Below are positions 9,718 through 49,356 of a DNA stretch of 64,000 bases, in pieces. The DNA is taken from IMG/VR virus record IMGVR_UViG_3300017765_000001, positions 46,338-110,337 of that record, one strand, 5' to 3'. The stretch comes from a virus. The notes under the pieces are model-generated. The model had not been told where the DNA came from and made no database searches. It saw only the letters and a program-made list of their open reading frames with translations. A program made the translations under genes and the position numbers. Position 1 is the first letter of the stretch, and the number at the start of each line of letters is the position of its first letter.

Positions 9718-9942
9718 TTAACCTCTATTGAAGTATGCATTGAAATATGCACTGATACCATTGGATGTTTTATTGCCTTGAGAAATCCAGGTATCAACAC
9801 ACTCATAAATGTCTTGAGTGCTGTAAGGTGCCTCCTCTATCCTTACACCTCCATATTTATTGAGTAGAATATTAAGGCATCCTGCCCTAAGTTTCATTCT
9901 GTCCTCTGTGTATCTCCAATCTTGGTTAGTCTGGATATCCAT
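9718..9942 (-). CDS. Hypothetical protein
   Basis: DWRYTEDRMKLR...IYECVDTWISQG; start estimated. Confidence 0.55.
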   Translation of the reverse strand: MDIQTNQDWRYTEDRMKLRAGCLNILLNKYGGVRIEEAPYSTQDIYECVDTWISQGNKTSNGISAYFNAYFNRG

Positions 9943-10117
9943 CATCATCATTAAAAATTTCATCATAGTCAGAGATTGGGGCATAGTATGATGCTGGATC
10001 ATCTAAGTTTTCTCTCTTGTCAAGGTATGCAGTAGTATCAGAGTAAACTTCAGACTCTAGTGCATCTACAAGTAATTTAAGATTTCTGACAATTAGTTTG
10101 AGTTTATCCTTTTCCAT
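9926..10117 (-). CDS. Conserved cyanophage hypothetical protein
   Basis: MEKDKLKLIVRNLKLLVDALESEVYSD...DYDEIFNDDDGYPD. Confidence 0.7.
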   Translation of the reverse strand: MEKDKLKLIVRNLKLLVDALESEVYSDTTAYLDKRENLDDPASYYAPISDYDEIFNDDDGYPD

Positions 10118-10139
10118 AGGAGAATATTTACTTGTACTA

Positions 10140-10176
10140 ATTATAGATAAAAAAAGAGGACCAGTCAAGGTCCTCT
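10140..10176 (-). terminator. Intrinsic terminator fused with sigma70 promoter
   Basis: AGAGGAC-CTTGACTG-GTCCTCT plus T-tract; TTGACT(10163-10168)-N17-TATAAT(10140-10145). Confidence 0.75.
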
Positions 10177-10330
10177 AAAAAACTTTCCAATCAGATATGC
10201 CATGTGATTTAAGAAAAATCCATTTAGCATATGATACACCACGATATGTCAAAAGTCTAAAAACTTTTTCTGGATCATGGGTCTCTGGATTGTACTCTGG
10301 AAGATCATAACAAAATTTGATCTTCAGCAT
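10175..10330 (-). CDS. 51-aa DUF4278-like protein
   Basis: MLKIKFCYDLPEYNPETHDPEKVFRLLTYRGVSYAKWIFLKSHGISDWKVF; LTYRGVxY motif; not in the ORF track. Confidence 0.6.
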   Translation of the reverse strand: MLKIKFCYDLPEYNPETHDPEKVFRLLTYRGVSYAKWIFLKSHGISDWKVF

Positions 10331-10340
10331 TTGTCATCCC

Positions 10341-10436
10341 TCAGATTTTTTTTAGAAGGAGTATTTCACCATACCATAATGACATTGTCGCAAAACAAGC
10401 AAGAGTGGTGACTGCTGTGAGTTGTAGTGCTCCCAT
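10341..10436 (-). CDS. 31-aa single-TM micro-protein
   Basis: MGALQLTAVTTLACFATMSLWYGEILLLKKI; GAGG SD. Confidence 0.5.
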   Translation of the reverse strand: MGALQLTAVTTLACFATMSLWYGEILLLKKI

Positions 10437-10443
10437 AATTACC

Positions 10444-10608
10444 TCATTTGGTATAGGTACGACCACGATAGCAGAAGGTGCCATGAGGCTCCTGTCCTGC
10501 CTTACGAACTTCACACTTTACACCACGATATGCAGTGTGAGTGATTCGTGCGTCATGCAGAGCTGCTGCCTTGTTAATTTGCTTCTTAATGATTGTAAGT
10601 GTGTTCAT
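10444..10608 (-). CDS. DUF4278-family small basic protein
   Basis: MNTLTIIKKQINKAAALHDARITHTAYRGV...FCYRGRTYTK with two YRG motifs; AGGAG SD; start moved to 10608. Confidence 0.75.
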   Translation of the reverse strand: MNTLTIIKKQINKAAALHDARITHTAYRGVKCEVRKAGQEPHGTFCYRGRTYTK

Positions 10609-10641
10609 TGATTTCTCCTGAAAGTAAGGGGTTTTTAATCC

Positions 10642-10884
10642 CGTTCCTTCAGTCGTTTGCGTCCCATCTACACTCAGAAGTATAGTCCTGAATGGTTTCA
10701 ATTAATTCTAACTTCCACTCTGCTTTCAGATTCTCATGCTTTTGGATCCTAAGGACCATAGCATCAGCATCTGAACATGTAATGGTTGATGAAAGAAAAA
10801 ATTCAAACATGGGATGAACGCTCCGTTCCGCGACTTACTTGCGTCCTGAGACTGAATTTTACTTCTGACTCTTGGATGAACGAT
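10642..10884 (-). ncRNA. Glutamine riboswitch-like (glnA/Downstream-peptide type) double-aptamer leader
   Basis: Two copies of CGUUCAUCC...GGACGCAA...GGAACG, with AGUA and GAAG E-loop-like elements; upstream of DUF4278 genes. Confidence 0.7.
10649..10810 (-). CDS. 53-aa ORF nested in the riboswitch-like RNA
   Basis: MFEFFLSSTITCSDADAMVLRIQKHENLKAEWKLELIETIQDYTSECRWDAND; GGAG upstream. Confidence 0.6.
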   Translation of the reverse strand: MFEFFLSSTITCSDADAMVLRIQKHENLKAEWKLELIETIQDYTSECRWDAND

Positions 10885-10890
10885 GGTCTT

Positions 10891-10919
10891 ATTATAGACC
10901 TCATGACTTATATAGTCAA
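10891..10919 (-). promoter_or_regulatory. Sigma70-type promoter of the riboswitch operon
   Basis: TTGACT-N17-TATAAT; predicted +1 near 10884, the first base of the aptamer. Confidence 0.8.
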
Positions 10920-10926
10920 GTTTGTA

Positions 10927-10942
10927 TGTAACTTGTGATACA
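10927..10942. promoter_or_regulatory. Putative NtcA box
   Basis: TGTA-ACTTGTGA-TACA matches TGTA-N8-TACA, 7 nt upstream of the -35. Confidence 0.5.
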
Positions 10943-10954
10943 ATTTTACTATTT

Positions 10955-11209
10955 CTACAGAATTATACCTTTGTCTCTAAAAAAGTGTAGCAAATCCTTC
11001 AAACCACCCACATGTCTTGACCCATCACTATCAATTGTAATCTGAGGATACTCTGCCTTCTCTCCAAACTCGGACTTGAATCCAATCTCTGAGAAGTCTT
11101 GGCCTACATGATAGACACTAATATCATGACCACTAAACTGGACACTTTTCAGCAGACTCTCTGCTCTCTCACACTCTTGATTGTCATTTGAGTAAATGAT
11201 TGCTCTCAT
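10955..11209 (-). CDS. Glutaredoxin-fold protein lacking CxxC
   Basis: AIIYSNDNQECER...AEYPQITI...HVGGLKD. Confidence 0.6.
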   Translation of the reverse strand: MRAIIYSNDNQECERAESLLKSVQFSGHDISVYHVGQDFSEIGFKSEFGEKAEYPQITIDSDGSRHVGGLKDLLHFFRDKGIIL

Positions 11210-17469: not shown

Positions 17470-17504
17470 TTGAAAAAGGGTTAAGTAAAAGTGCGGGGAA
17501 CACT

Positions 17505-17600
17505 AGGAAAAATATTCCAACTCTACCCTCCAGAGTTGGTATGAGAGACGTTTTTTACTTCCCTAGAGGTCTCGGTTTAAGGGGAAGAGTAAAAAGGTGA
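17505..17600 (-). ncRNA. PhotoRC-II-like structured psbA leader (boundaries approximate)
   Basis: TTCCC/GGGAA stem with GAGAC in its loop complementary to downstream GTCTC (pseudoknot), then CCAACTCT/AGAGTTGG hairpin; directly 5' of phage psbA. Confidence 0.6.
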
Positions 17601-29428: not shown

Positions 29429-29463
29429 ATTATATATAAAAAAAATCCCCCTGTCAAGGGGGA
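29429..29463 (-). promoter_or_regulatory. Terminator hairpin fused with consensus sigma70 promoter for hli
   Basis: TCCCCCT-TGAC-AGGGGGA plus T-tract; TTGACA(29452-29457)-N17-TATAAT(29429-29434). Confidence 0.8.
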
Positions 29464-29480
29464 GGTGTAGTAATTTATAC

Positions 29481-45618: not shown

Positions 45619-46667
45619 TTCTTATTGTCAATTTGCTGTTTAATCCATGTATAAGTTTTTCTGATTCCTTCTTCAAGAGATTGAGAATAATCCCATCCAA
45701 GATTCTCTCTAATCAGATCATTATTAGAGTTTCTACCTCTGACACCAGTAGGTGCATCAAGTTTGTACAATTTCTTGACTACCTTACCTGATACTTTAGC
45801 AGCAGTATCAACCAATTCATTGATTGAAACCATCTCTTCTGATCCAATATTGACTGGACCCATGAAGTCAGAATCCATCAGCCTTCTAGTTGCTTCAATG
45901 CATTCATCAATGAACAGGAAGGAACGAGTCTGTAAGCCATCTCCCCACACCTCGATGCCTCCACCTGTCTCAGGGAGGTAAGCGACTTTACGGCAGATTG
46001 CAGCTGGCGCTTTCTCTCTTCCTCCCTCCCAGGTTCCTTCTGGACCGAAGATATTGTGATACCTAGCAATACGAACAGGAATAGAATGATTACGGTTGTA
46101 AGCCAAGTAAAGTCTTTCGCTAAAGAGTTTTTCCCATCCATATTCTGAGTCTGGGTTTGCTGGGTATGCTGATTCTTCACGACAGTCTGGATTGTTGGGG
46201 TCAAGTTGATTGTGTTCTGGATACATGCAGGCAGATCCAGAATAGAAAATCTTAGTGGTATTTGTTACTGTATAGTCATTAAACTCTTTTTGTGCTTCAA
46301 GCACATTAAGATTGATGCTGACAGAGTTGTGCATGATATTGGCATCATTCTCACCAGTGAATACAAATCCTGCACCACCCATATCTGCAGCAAACTGATA
46401 GATCTCATCAAAACATTGATGATACTGTTGAGGGACATCATAATAAAAATTTCCCTGATATCCCTTAAATCTGATGACCTTATTCACAAAAGTTGGATCA
46501 CGTAGATCACCATGAACAAATTCATGTGCCTCTGATTTACCAAACTCAGGGCTCTTCAAATCTACTCCACGCACCCAATATCCCTCAGCACGCAGACGTT
46601 TTACCATATGACTACCAATAAAACCACCTGCACCTAAGACAAGTGCAGTCTTTGTGTATTCAGACAT
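45615..46667 (-). CDS. GDP-mannose 3,5-epimerase-like SDR (WcaG family)
   Basis: GAGGFIG, AADMGGAG, SACMYP, YGWEK, GGREKAPAAICRK, WGDGLQTRSF, GVRGRNS. Confidence 0.9.
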   Translation of the reverse strand: MSEYTKTALVLGAGGFIGSHMVKRLRAEGYWVRGVDLKSPEFGKSEAHEFVHGDLRDPTFVNKVIRFKGYQGNFYYDVPQQYHQCFDEIYQFAADMGGAGFVFTGENDANIMHNSVSINLNVLEAQKEFNDYTVTNTTKIFYSGSACMYPEHNQLDPNNPDCREESAYPANPDSEYGWEKLFSERLYLAYNRNHSIPVRIARYHNIFGPEGTWEGGREKAPAAICRKVAYLPETGGGIEVWGDGLQTRSFLFIDECIEATRRLMDSDFMGPVNIGSEEMVSINELVDTAAKVSGKVVKKLYKLDAPTGVRGRNSNNDLIRENLGWDYSQSLEEGIRKTYTWIKQQIDNKK

Positions 46668-47322: not shown

Positions 47323-47395
47323 TAGGGGTTGTGAGGATCGAACTCACCTTAGGCAAATTATGAGTTTGCTGCATTCACCAGATTGCTAAACCCCC
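47323..47395 (-). tRNA. tRNA with CAT anticodon (Met, or Ile2 if lysidinylated)
   Basis: Cloverleaf; GCAAA-CT-CAT-AA-TTTGC; GTTCGATCC T-arm. Confidence 0.88.
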
Positions 47396-47399
47396 AAGG

Positions 47400-47471
47400 T
47401 AGGACTGCTGGGACTTGAACCCAGATCACTCCGTTATAAGCAGAGGGCCTTTACCTTTAGGCGACAGTCCC
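47400..47471 (-). tRNA. tRNA-Ile(TAT)
   Basis: CTCTG-CT-TAT-AA-CGGAG; GTTCAAGTC; 5' end overlaps the talC 3' end. Confidence 0.85.
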
Positions 47472-48110
47472 TTGTACCTGCTTCCAATCATTCTCAAAGA
47501 TTTCCATTCCTTTATCAGTAAGGATATGATCATACATTTGCTCAAACACTTTTGGTGGCATAGTGCAAATGTGAGCACCATTATAGTATGATCTTACAAC
47601 TCTTTGAACATTTCTGATTGAAGCAGATAGGACTTGAGTTTCAATTCCTTGAACTCTATAGAGGTCTGATATAGATCTAACGACCTCCAGTCCTGCTACT
47701 GATTGATCATCCAGTCTACCCACAAAAGGAGAGACATAAGTTGCTCCTGCCTTTGCTGCCAGAATTGCTTGTGCTGCACAGAAAACAAGTGTAACATTGG
47801 TCTTGATACCTCTGTCTGCCAGATTTTTACATGCCAAGAGACCATCTCTCGTGCATGGGACTTTAATTGTTGAGCAATATCCAAACTTGTCATCAAGTCT
47901 GATGCCTTCATCAGTCATCTCTTGTGCATCACCCATGACTTCCATGCTGATATCTTCAATTCCTATCTCATCTATCTCTGCATAGACATCTTGAGGATCT
48001 CTACCACTCTTCCTAATCAGTGTGGGGTTTGTTGTCACACCATCAATCAATCCAGTCTGGAAATACTTTCTGATGACTTCTGTGTCTGCTGTATCAAGAA
48101 AAATTTTCAT
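47457..48110 (-). CDS. talC: Transaldolase (TalC/FSA type)
   Basis: IFLDTAD, GVTTNPTL, IKVP, NVTLVF, YVSPFVGRLDD, ASIR. Confidence 0.96.
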   Translation of the reverse strand: MKIFLDTADTEVIRKYFQTGLIDGVTTNPTLIRKSGRDPQDVYAEIDEIGIEDISMEVMGDAQEMTDEGIRLDDKFGYCSTIKVPCTRDGLLACKNLADRGIKTNVTLVFCAAQAILAAKAGATYVSPFVGRLDDQSVAGLEVVRSISDLYRVQGIETQVLSASIRNVQRVVRSYYNGAHICTMPPKVFEQMYDHILTDKGMEIFENDWKQVQGTVA

Positions 48111-48280
48111 GTTCCTTCGTTATTGTTATCTCTGTACATTTTAAGTATTTCATCATCAGCAGGCATCATGACTGCTGCATGTCCATCATCATTCACTATG
48201 CCAAGGTGTTCACCTTTTTCAACTCTCTCCATTAATTCATCCCATTTATCCTGAAATTCTTTGACTGTGAAAATTTCCAT
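48107..48280 (-). CDS. 57-aa Phd/YefM antitoxin-like protein
   Basis: MEIFTVKEFQDKWDELMERVEKGEHLGIVNDDGHAAVMMPADD; not in the ORF track. Confidence 0.6.
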   Translation of the reverse strand: MEIFTVKEFQDKWDELMERVEKGEHLGIVNDDGHAAVMMPADDEILKMYRDNNNEGT

Positions 48281-48307
48281 TGCACATAGGTTTTGATTAT
48301 ATAGGCA

Positions 48308-48381
48308 TCGAGGTGACAGGATTCGAACCTGCGACCCCTGCTTCCCAAAAGCAGTGCTCTACCAAACTGAGCTACACCTCG
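48308..48381 (-). tRNA. tRNA-Pro(TGG)
   Basis: CTGCT-TT-TGG-GA-AGCAG; GTTCGAATC. Confidence 0.93.
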
Positions 48382-48386
48382 ATGAG

Positions 48387-48473
48387 CGGAGAGGGTGGGA
48401 TTCGAACCCACGTTGCCCTTGCAGACAAGCTGGTTTTCAAGACCAGAGCCATAAACCACTCGACCACCTCTCC
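48387..48473 (-). tRNA. tRNA-Ser(TGA)
   Basis: CTGGT-CT-TGA-AA-ACCAG; long variable arm; G73. Confidence 0.93.
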
Positions 48474-48722
48474 TTATCTCTCTTCAAAGTCAAGTCTTCT
48501 GACTTTCCTTTGACGTCTTGCCTCCTGAAAGGCAAGGTCTTCATTTGATAGAACTCCTTTTCTTTTTTTAGGATTGTTAGATTTTACCATAACAATCTTA
48601 CTTAGGTCAACTGCAGTCACCTTATCATCAACCACTGTCATCATATTGGGACATCCACAGGATTGAGATTTGGTGGAGCTCGTGATTTCTTTTCTGCATA
48701 CTTTACATCTTACTGTAATCAT
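48474..48722 (-). CDS. Cys-rich (Zn-ribbon-like) hypothetical protein
   Basis: CKVC...CGCPN; RRQRKVRRLDFEER. Confidence 0.7.
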   Translation of the reverse strand: MITVRCKVCRKEITSSTKSQSCGCPNMMTVVDDKVTAVDLSKIVMVKSNNPKKRKGVLSNEDLAFQEARRQRKVRRLDFEER

Positions 48723-48742
48723 TGGTTTAGTTGGATACTACA

Positions 48743-48814
48743 TGGGAGATACAAGGATCGAACTTGTGACATCCTCGGTGTAAACGAGATGCTCTACCGC
48801 TGAGCTAATCTCCC
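48743..48814 (-). tRNA. tRNA-Val(TAC)
   Basis: TCTCG-TT-TAC-AC-CGAGG; GTTCGATCC. Confidence 0.93.
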
Positions 48815-48817
48815 ATA

Positions 48818-48890
48818 CTCCTCCACCTGGACTCGAACCAGGGACAAGGTGATTAACAGTCACCTGCTCTACCAACTGAGCTATAGAGGA
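48818..48890 (-). tRNA. tRNA-Asn(GTT)
   Basis: GGTGA-CT-GTT-AA-TCACC; GTTCGAGTC. Confidence 0.93.
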
Positions 48891-49097
48891 TTATTCTAAG
48901 ACACTAGTTTCTTGTTTCTTCAATCTAAAATACATCTTATAGTATTTCTTTTTGATTCCATCAAGAGTTTCCTTATCATCACCAAACCCCATCCAATTAC
49001 AGAGTTGTGCTGATCCTTCCAATTCACTAATCAGTCTCAATATATTGACTGACTGAATAGGAAGACCTCCTGGTTGATAATCTTCAATTGGGTTCAT
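48891..49097 (-). CDS. Hypothetical protein
   Basis: GGLPIQSVNILRLISELEGS...KKKYYKMYF; start moved out of tRNA-Gly. Confidence 0.65.
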   Translation of the reverse strand: MNPIEDYQPGGLPIQSVNILRLISELEGSAQLCNWMGFGDDKETLDGIKKKYYKMYFRLKKQETSVLE

Positions 49098-49115
49098 AAT
49101 ACTCCAGTAGGAGGA

Positions 49116-49187
49116 AGCGAGTAAGGGGACTTGAACCCCTGACATTCAGCTTGGAAGGCTGACGTTCTACCACTGAACTACACTCGC
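49116..49187 (-). tRNA. tRNA-Gly(TCC)
   Basis: TCAGC-CT-TCC-AA-GCTGA; U73. Confidence 0.92.
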
Positions 49188-49206
49188 ATTGTGGGAATAA
49201 ATCCCA

Positions 49207-49278
49207 AGCCAGATAACAGATTTGAACTGATGACCTTTGCTTTACAAAAGCACTGCTCTACCACTGAGCTAATCTGGC
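49207..49278 (-). tRNA. tRNA-Thr(TGT)
   Basis: TGCT-TT-TGT-AA-AGCA; GTTCAAATC. Confidence 0.88.
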
Positions 49279-49282
49279 AAGG

Positions 49283-49356
49283 CGACTCAAGTAGGATTCG
49301 AACCTACGACCGACTGCTTAGAAGGCAGTTGCTCTGTCCAGCTGAGCTATTGAGTC
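49283..49356 (-). tRNA. tRNA-Arg(TCT)
   Basis: ACTGC-CT-TCT-AA-GCAGT; GTTCGAATC. Confidence 0.93.

Follow-up and report, generated by a model that had tools for sequence, protein, structure and literature searches.

The closest described relatives of the element considered here are the two types of glutamine riboswitch, both of which have been published as ON switches (PMC6212724, PMC6698751) and linked to DUF4278 genes (PMC6212724). The element lies in a 64,000-nucleotide stretch of viral DNA, positions 46,338 to 110,337 of IMG/VR record IMGVR_UViG_3300017765_000001 (this whole stretch is called the window below). The source genome is that of a T4-like cyanomyovirus, with Synechococcus phages as its nearest nucleotide matches by blastn. 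An original prediction, made from the sequence alone, had described a self-contained nitrogen-sensing micro-operon here: an NtcA-like box, a promoter, an aptamer-like leader, four open reading frames (ORFs) and a terminator. All of these features were located, on the minus strand from 10942 to 10155, and the unit does carry its own promoter, leader, four small ORFs and terminator.

With Glutamine-I (glnA RNA, RF01739; the Synechocystis gifB/IF17 leader, PMC6212724) the leader of this cassette shares a core of the form CGUUCA-hairpin-GGACG(G/C)AAGUA-P3-GAAGGAACG, a predicted three-way junction with an E-loop and a location 5' of a DUF4278 gene; the published examples are translational ON switches. 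It departs from Glutamine-I in that P3 opens into a second, permuted core (with a P1 capped by a GAG loop) and not into a small hairpin, in that one or both variable hairpins hold whole protein genes, and in that the window copy fails the Rfam threshold. With Glutamine-II (Downstream-peptide motif, RF01704; marine Synechococcus and Prochlorococcus; PMC6698751, PMC6212724) it shares a linking strand of CGC rather than CGG, a hairpin around GGAACGG just 5' of the start of a short YRG-motif ORF, the same host group, and a candidate NtcA site, as found at the promoter of the host gene. Unlike Glutamine-II, it lacks a spacer between GGAACGG and this hairpin, which appears to compete with P3; there are two cores, and the scores stay below threshold, at 14 bits for the window and 26 bits for the compact homologue of phage Syn30.

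Two further systems place an ORF inside a functional RNA: mgtL is a short regulatory peptide ORF within the sensing RNA of the Salmonella mgtA Mg2+ leader, and homing-endonuclease ORFs sit in peripheral loops of the group I introns of T4-type phages. As in the mgtL leader, an ORF here lies within a putative sensor RNA, and ribosome occupancy and folding would affect each other. Unlike mgtL, the nested ORFs encode conserved proteins of 52-75 amino acids (aa) that are under purifying selection and occupy the loop of an aptamer hairpin precisely, start codon to stop codon. As in the introns, the gene occupies the loop of a helix in a structured RNA and is present or absent among relatives; the RNA, however, would be a metabolite sensor in an mRNA leader rather than a ribozyme, and the proteins are small two-cysteine proteins rather than nucleases.

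Glutamine riboswitches of T4-like cyanophages are already known from Rfam scans, for example in S-CREM1, where a 99-nt match, as long as the compact double form described below, scores 44 bits (PMC9964418). No paper describing nested genes or interlocked cores was found, in a search that did not extend to Ames & Breaker 2011. The element therefore appears to represent a glutamine riboswitch of new architecture, one that contains a protein gene. We consider it probable that it is a double glutamine riboswitch, with interlocked cores and a nested gene, that controls translation of two outputs. Riboswitches are usually seen as short non-coding leaders; here the sensor would span about 240 nt with a translated gene inside it, and folding, ligand binding and translation would therefore be coupled in one molecule. 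The nested genes would also account for the failure of Rfam scans to find most cyanophage glutamine riboswitches, with only the rare forms free of nested genes passing. The layout is common to hundreds of abundant ocean viruses and offers a testable handle on how cyanophages may read the nitrogen state of the host early in infection. Four widespread phage protein families whose function is unknown (phrog_504, phrog_545, phrog_6192 and phrog_6471) also gain a regulatory context.

Two putative sensor cores and a nested gene

At the level of sequence, the anatomy and conservation of the element, the covariation of four of its helices and the coding status of its four ORFs are clear. The cassette region is matched in 418 phage records by blastn, an exact 20-mer from the junction between the two cores matches at least 120 IMG/VR contigs, and all cassette features are conserved across hundreds of T4-like cyanophages. 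The cassette is self-contained and conserved in this phage group, and its genes are putative early genes. Within the 110-kb contig, CGTTCA, GACGCAA and GGAACGG occur together at this locus alone.

The leader (minus strand, like every feature of the cassette) begins with AUCGUUCAUCC, about 7 nt past the -10 hexamer. Sensor core 1 (10824..10884) comprises CGUUC (10882-10878), a hairpin closed by UCC..GGA with a 27-nt insert (10876-10844), CGC-AAGUA (10843-10836), AGUCG (10835-10831) and GAACG (10828-10824). A second CGUUCAUCCC is found at 10820-10811, directly 5' of the AUG of the 53-codon ORF53, and a second GGGACGCAAACGACUGAAGGAACGG at 10665-10641 is made up of the last five codons of ORF53, its stop and the bases just beyond. 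ORF53, which has one of these blocks at either end, is therefore enclosed by the variable hairpin of a second core (10641..10823). The parts of core 2 are CGUUC (10820-10816), a closing helix of UCCCA (10814-10810) with UGGGA (10666-10662), and then CGC-AAA (10661-10656), CGACU (10655-10651), GAAG (10650-10647) and GAACG-G (10646-10641). Between the cores is a GAG loop that doubles as the Shine-Dalgarno (SD) sequence GGAG of ORF53 (10824-10821).

The pocket nucleotides, namely CGUUC, the CGC linking strand and GAACG with the next G, thus occur twice in the window, and they are invariant in more than 100 relatives, synonymous sites included. In solved glutamine riboswitches the ligand is contacted by C1, G2, the CGC strand, C39, G40 and G41 (PMC6698751), and the core motifs agree with these nucleotides. 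A YRG-motif gene, the type of gene expected after such a leader, lies 3' in every related locus that is complete downstream. These comparisons support membership of the leader in the glutamine-riboswitch class, and glutamine is its presumed ligand. The original prediction of a glutamine-riboswitch-like leader was thus right about the class but assumed a single aptamer where two cores are present.

Of the forms scored, only a natural compact double form (L099) passes, with 46.4 bits against the type I model of Rfam (gathering threshold, GA, 35), and only when aligned across both cores: the alignment treats the RNA as a single aptamer composed of the 5' half of core 1, P3, and GAAGGAACG of core 2. 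Four other compact forms (L249-L252) fall under the gathering threshold, and so does core 1 of the compact Syn30 homologue, with 26.4 and 25.8 bits in the two Rfam models. The halves of the type I E-loop are likewise split between the cores, AGUA being found in core 1 only and GAAG in core 2 only.

ORF53 (10649..10810; stop UGA 10651-10649) belongs to phrog_504. Its AUG lies in the closing helix of core 2, and its last five codons and stop form the 3' core of the aptamer. A nested ORF of 52-66 aa is present in 117 of 127 related sequences, beginning directly after CGUUCAUCC(C/U) and ending either with U(G/A)A inside the 3' core or with UAG immediately ahead of GGACGCA. The homologues at this position are 112 distinct and very divergent proteins of 52-66 aa, with two cysteines invariant in the aligned class of 52-56 aa (n=78). 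The family has codon-position entropies of 0.97, 0.54 and 1.33 and a median dN/dS of 0.315, with 99.8% of pairs below 1. The tail of the gene is frozen at synonymous sites as well: the tail codons are GAC in 105/105, GCA in 105/105, AAC in 97 and CAC in 8, and GAC in 102 and GAT in 3, unlike the interior, where 78% of Asp codons are GAT and 73% of Asn codons are AAT. By this comparison, the RNA is constrained beyond its coding function.

An AF2 model of the ORF53 protein is a two-helix hairpin (pLDDT 84). The protein has no Pfam match, its model found no PDB match at E <= 0.001 with Foldseek (best E = 3.0), and a search of the ESM Atlas returned viral hypothetical proteins only. The original prediction had rightly named a coding 53-aa ORF but treated it as the simple first gene after the leader, whereas it lies inside the hairpin of core 2. 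A DUF4278-like assignment for it fails, given the lack of a Pfam match, its place in phrog_504 and the predicted two-cysteine helical hairpin.

The hairpin of core 1 can be occupied in the same way. In about 40% of relatives it encloses an ORF of its own, of 65-75 aa (phrog_6471), whose AUG pairs with a CAU ahead of its stop, as in UCUUAUG/CAUAAGA, UCUCAUG/CAUGAGA and UCCUAUG/CAUAGGA. All four combinations of ORF and short loop across the two hairpins are found in relatives. ORF53 is absent from the compact natural forms (L099, L249-L252), and contigs from marine RNA libraries have UUCG or a 9-nt loop in its place; these metatranscriptome contigs give partial cover and serve solely to show that a loop can stand in for the ORF. 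A scan of genome contigs with the 15-mer GGAACGGAGCGTTCA returned 120 random matches from unrelated bacteria, one of them with a partial neighbouring motif; the pattern is too short for this purpose.

The four covarying helices include the hairpins of both cores. For core 1, mean helix length is 4.98 in 53 distinct compact relatives, compared with 2.70 when partners are permuted, and 5.77 compared with 3.98 in 39 relatives that contain the ORF; in the latter set position 3 pairs as U-A 17 times and as C-G 22 times and is never mismatched. Position 4 of the closing helix of core 2 is C-G in 77, U-A in 16 and U.G in 5. The third helix, P3, would join the two cores across about 190 nt by pairing AGUCG (10835-10831) with CGACU (10655-10651). 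Distinct sequences have AGUCG/CGACU in 114 cases, AAUCG/CGAUU in 10 and AGUCG/CGAUU in 1, and AAUCG/CGACU in none. The sole position left free by the coding sequence (GAC to GAU) is the one that varies, and its partner follows. The AAUCG/CGAUU variant accompanies four different nested proteins and differing forms of core 1.

The fourth helix is a platform hairpin (10618..10652) in which CUGAAG (10652-10647) pairs with UUUCAG (10623-10618); GAACGG and a small GGG/CCC hairpin lie within it, and it abuts the SD of the next gene, ORF54. In relatives it takes the form CU(G/A)AAG with (C/U)UU(C/U)AG and ends 9-11 nt 5' of the ORF54 AUG. It is the lone consensus hairpin returned by RNAalifold for 82 sequences, with 6 pairs and none broken; pair 3 is G-C in 37, A-U in 23 and G.U in 22. 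A separate count of the pair formed by the second base of the ORF53 stop gave G-C in 34, A-U in 20 and G.U in 17, with no mismatches. A type I feature (P3 and the E-loop) and a type II feature (P2 around GGAACGG) are both present and both covary, with a 2-nt overlap, and a pure type II reading keeps some likelihood.

Many relatives (e.g. L002:707-760, L005:700-750 and the platform of L099) carry an extra module of about 30 nt in the loop of the platform hairpin, consisting of AACGGAUCC, a small covarying hairpin and GAGAAGGUUAA. A further complementarity involves the start of ORF54, where AUGAAC (10603-10608) can pair with the GUUCAU of either core (10876-10881 and 10814-10819, minus strand); in the energy-based fold of the window its partner is core 1. 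For codon 2 of ORF54, 85 relatives use AAC and 5 use AAT, and 56% of the other Asn codons of the same genes are AAC. This might be an anti-start pairing of the unbound state.

A candidate translational switch and its alternatives

In the proposed mechanism, a host-type promoter would yield an mRNA that begins with the double riboswitch. CGUUC of core 1 would pair with GAACG of core 2, and GAACG of core 1 would form a small hairpin with CGUUC of core 2 across the GAG loop, with P3 bridging both three-way junctions in a fully nested structure. The small hairpin, GAACG(1)-GAG-CGUUC(2), is also predicted by energy folding of the window. In the folded sensor, the GAG loop of the inner P1 and the pair closing it would be formed by the SD of ORF53 (GGAG), and the ORF53 AUG would lie in the closing helix. 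With both so held, ORF53 should be off when the sensor is folded, and ribosomes on ORF53 and the folded sensor would be mutually exclusive.

The downstream output would be set at the platform hairpin. P3 and this hairpin overlap by 2 nt (C10652 and U10651), and because both share these nucleotides they are read as alternative states, which would make the element an ON switch for ORF54. Glutamine would stabilize the fold and lock the start site of ORF53; the same fold would remove CUGAAG from the hairpin that abuts the SD of ORF54, turning on the DUF4278 gene and probably the two later small genes too. Low glutamine would thus favor ORF53, and high glutamine the DUF4278 set. In its most complete version, the model has one fold reading both glutamine and ribosome traffic, with glutamine locking the nested gene off and turning the downstream DUF4278 genes on, and with the inner permuted core binding a second glutamine cooperatively. 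We offer this version tentatively, and it could well prove wrong in one or more of its parts.

Several observations weigh against the interlocked fold or the switch built on it. The window aptamers are sub-threshold in Rfam, with 18 bits for Glutamine RF01739 (GA 35) and 14 bits for Glutamine-II RF01704 (GA 33), AAAG replaces GAAG in 27 of 105 relatives, and the covariation of P3 may stem from few evolutionary events. The platform hairpin leaves GGAG unpaired. A ribosome halting at the ORF53 stop would open that hairpin, which could leave ORF54 on in either state. Both cores have the same P1 strands, and a tandem pairing (1-1, 2-2) is compatible with the sequence; plain energy folding of the compact form (L099) in fact pairs core 1 with its own GAACG.

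The last two points suggest a simpler arrangement, in which two independent Glutamine-II-like aptamers stand in plain tandem, each using its own GAACG, the first gating ORF53 and the second ORF54, and AGUCG/CGACU has no structural role. Each core does have a complete set of CGUUCA, GGACGCA and GGAACGG, tandem glnA RNAs are known (PMC2864571), and the P2 helix that defines type II is present as the covarying hairpin enclosing GGAACGG in core 2. This arrangement is nevertheless unlikely, because P3 covaries (AAUCG is found with CGAUU in 10/10 cases), single cores score 14-26 bits compared with 46.4 for the cross-core reading, and the halves of the E-loop are divided between the two cores. In addition, the solved type II fold needs about 3 nt spanning the pseudoknot (PMC6698751), and there are 0 nt between the 5' strand of P2 and GGAACGG in either core. 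Another proposal would be that the conserved RNA blocks are mainly scaffolds for recombination or translational coupling in a shuffled cassette, with core 2 no longer sensing glutamine and ORF54 driven by ribosomes that terminate at the ORF53 stop within the platform hairpin. Such a history would suit the mosaic content of the cassette, in which either hairpin may have or lack a nested ORF irrespective of the other, the constant position of the ORF53 stop in, or just 5' of, the hairpin abutting the next SD, and the stem-loop cassettes made by terminator and promoter. It is hard to reconcile with pocket nucleotides that do not vary in either half, including where they lie outside the coding sequence (as with ORFs that end with UAG before GGACGCA), with the covariation of the closing helices and P3, and with compact, canonical-looking forms at the same locus 5' of the same gene. 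We therefore regard it as very improbable, and the double riboswitch with interlocked cores remains the preferred reading.

The promoter and its GTA-N8-TAC box

The cassette is preceded by a sigma70-type early promoter, TTGACT-17-TATAAT (10891..10919), with 11/12 matches to the consensus. This promoter is kept in relatives, where the aptamer starts 7-9 nt 3' of the -10 hexamer, that is, at about +1 to +3. A TGTA-N8-TACA box of the NtcA type (10927..10942) lies 7 nt 5' of the -35 hexamer, with its center at about -50.5 from the inferred start at 10884. GTA-N8-TAC is found in 83 of 117 distinct related upstream regions (71%), compared with about 0.03 expected per region. Its spacing is fixed, the distance to the TTG of the -35 being 8 nt in most cases and 2-4 nt in some; its consensus among relatives is TGTATCAyATkwTACA, and the left half-site TGTATCA is conserved in sequence. 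Among 37 sigma70-like promoter candidates of the contig, only two are accompanied by a box of this kind.

The NtcA-like box of the original prediction thus holds up as a conserved promoter element, centered near -50 and off the -41.5 position, as had been stated. The geometry of a class II NtcA activator, with a box near -41.5 replacing the -35, is absent here, as TTGACT is present at -35; with a good -35 on its 3' side, a box at about -50 matches the classical geometry of neither an activator nor a repressor. Such cyanophages have been predicted to carry NtcA sites (PMC3037559), as has a host DUF4278 gene (PMC6212724). By binding NtcA, the box could add a transcriptional input from the 2-oxoglutarate/NtcA state of the host. 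A difficulty for this proposal is that, because the box sits upstream of a near-consensus -35, an activator is seemingly unneeded. The box could instead be bound by a different CRP-family or phage factor, or form a stem-loop in read-through RNA, with the cassette expressed constitutively early. Its position 7-8 nt 5' of the -35, outside class II activator and repressor positions, would agree with this, as would the complementarity of inner positions in about half of the boxes. We judge it rather unlikely all the same, since the box fits GTA-N8-TAC exactly in 71% of relatives, its left half-site is strongly conserved and does not covary freely, and NtcA sites are predicted both in these phages and in host DUF4278 genes (PMC3037559, PMC6212724).

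The notion of the box as a covarying hairpin was rejected on the conservation of the left half-site. A second GTA-N8-TAC, near the hli promoter at 29467, overlaps a TATAAAT motif and is likely due to chance. The -10 hexamer itself lies inside the loop of a small palindrome, GGTCT-ATAATA-AGACC (10886-10901, minus strand). The arms covary in relatives (GGTAT..ATACC, GTGCT..AGCAC, GGGGT..ACCCC) with TATAAT constant, and the palindrome could be a hairpin of read-through RNA or a feature at the DNA level.

The downstream genes and the setting of the cassette

Three genes follow the leader. ORF54 (10444..10620, including its SD AGGAG at 10619-10615; AUG 10608) encodes a DUF4278/IF17-like protein of 54 aa with two YRG motifs, in phrog_545. 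ORF31 (10341..10436) encodes a hydrophobic peptide of 31 aa, possibly a single membrane helix, and ORF51 (10175..10330; phrog_6192) a protein of 51 aa with one LTYRG motif, a distant DUF4278 relative. Each of these ORFs, like ORF53, has a GGAG or GAGG motif ahead of it. Median dN/dS is 0.19 for ORF54, 0.30 for ORF31 and 0.24 for ORF51, and variability is highest at third codon positions in all four ORFs; by these measures all four are genes under coding constraint. The PHROGs families that hold ORF53, ORF54 and ORF51 are of unknown function, and ORF31 is in no PHROG.

A DUF4278-type gene after the leader, as in picocyanobacteria (PMC6212724), had been foreseen, but the claim of two DUF4278-like proteins stands on uneven ground. 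Among 104 distinct homologues of ORF54, 95 match the Pfam family PF14105 with E <= 0.01 (the best at 2.3e-07); the window copy is sub-threshold (15.8 bits, E = 0.018; curated cut-off 25.3 bits). ORF51 of the window scores 12.6 bits (E = 0.18) with the same cut-off, and direct matches are found in 2 of 41 relatives; its relationship comes from profile comparison with the second YRG half of the ORF54 family (probability 93%, E = 3e-07). The predicted 31-aa transmembrane peptide is indeed coding and conserved, lying directly 3' of ORF54 in 42 distinct relatives, but the membrane label is moderately supported only, with a best 19-residue Kyte-Doolittle window of 1.38.

The suggestion that these proteins are small effectors against glutamine synthetase (GS) is weak. 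In IF17, DUF4278 makes up the N-terminal part, and GS inactivation does not require that part; for marine picocyanobacteria, a control of GS by IF-type factors had been ruled out (PMC6316151). The ORF54 protein has just 54 aa, and its sole Pfam match is the sub-threshold one to DUF4278.

The cassette ends with an intrinsic terminator (10155..10176), an 8-bp stem followed by a U run, whose loop holds the -35 of the next promoter. The whole stem-loop, with the -35 of that early promoter as its loop, is AGAGGACC-TTGACT-GGTCCTCT, followed by TATAAT (10140-10176, minus strand). A second one, CCCCC-TTGACA-GGGGG, lies ahead of the hli gene (29429-29465, minus strand), and both resemble the promoter-early stem-loop cassettes of T4-type phages.

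The gene upstream of the cassette (10955-11209, minus strand) has no Pfam match and is annotated as thioredoxin in S-SCSM1, where a gene so annotated also precedes the cassette; a similar ORF end lies ahead of it in L099. A thioredoxin-annotated neighbor is of some note beside a nested protein with two cysteines. The next gene downstream (9926-10120, minus strand) encodes a conserved acidic small protein (MDKEKLKLIVRNL...DDDGYPD), has its own promoter and is found 3' of the cassette in most relatives. Elsewhere, the window contains a PhotoRC-II RNA (17504-17600, minus strand; 78 bits) and nine clustered tRNA genes (47323-49356, minus strand).

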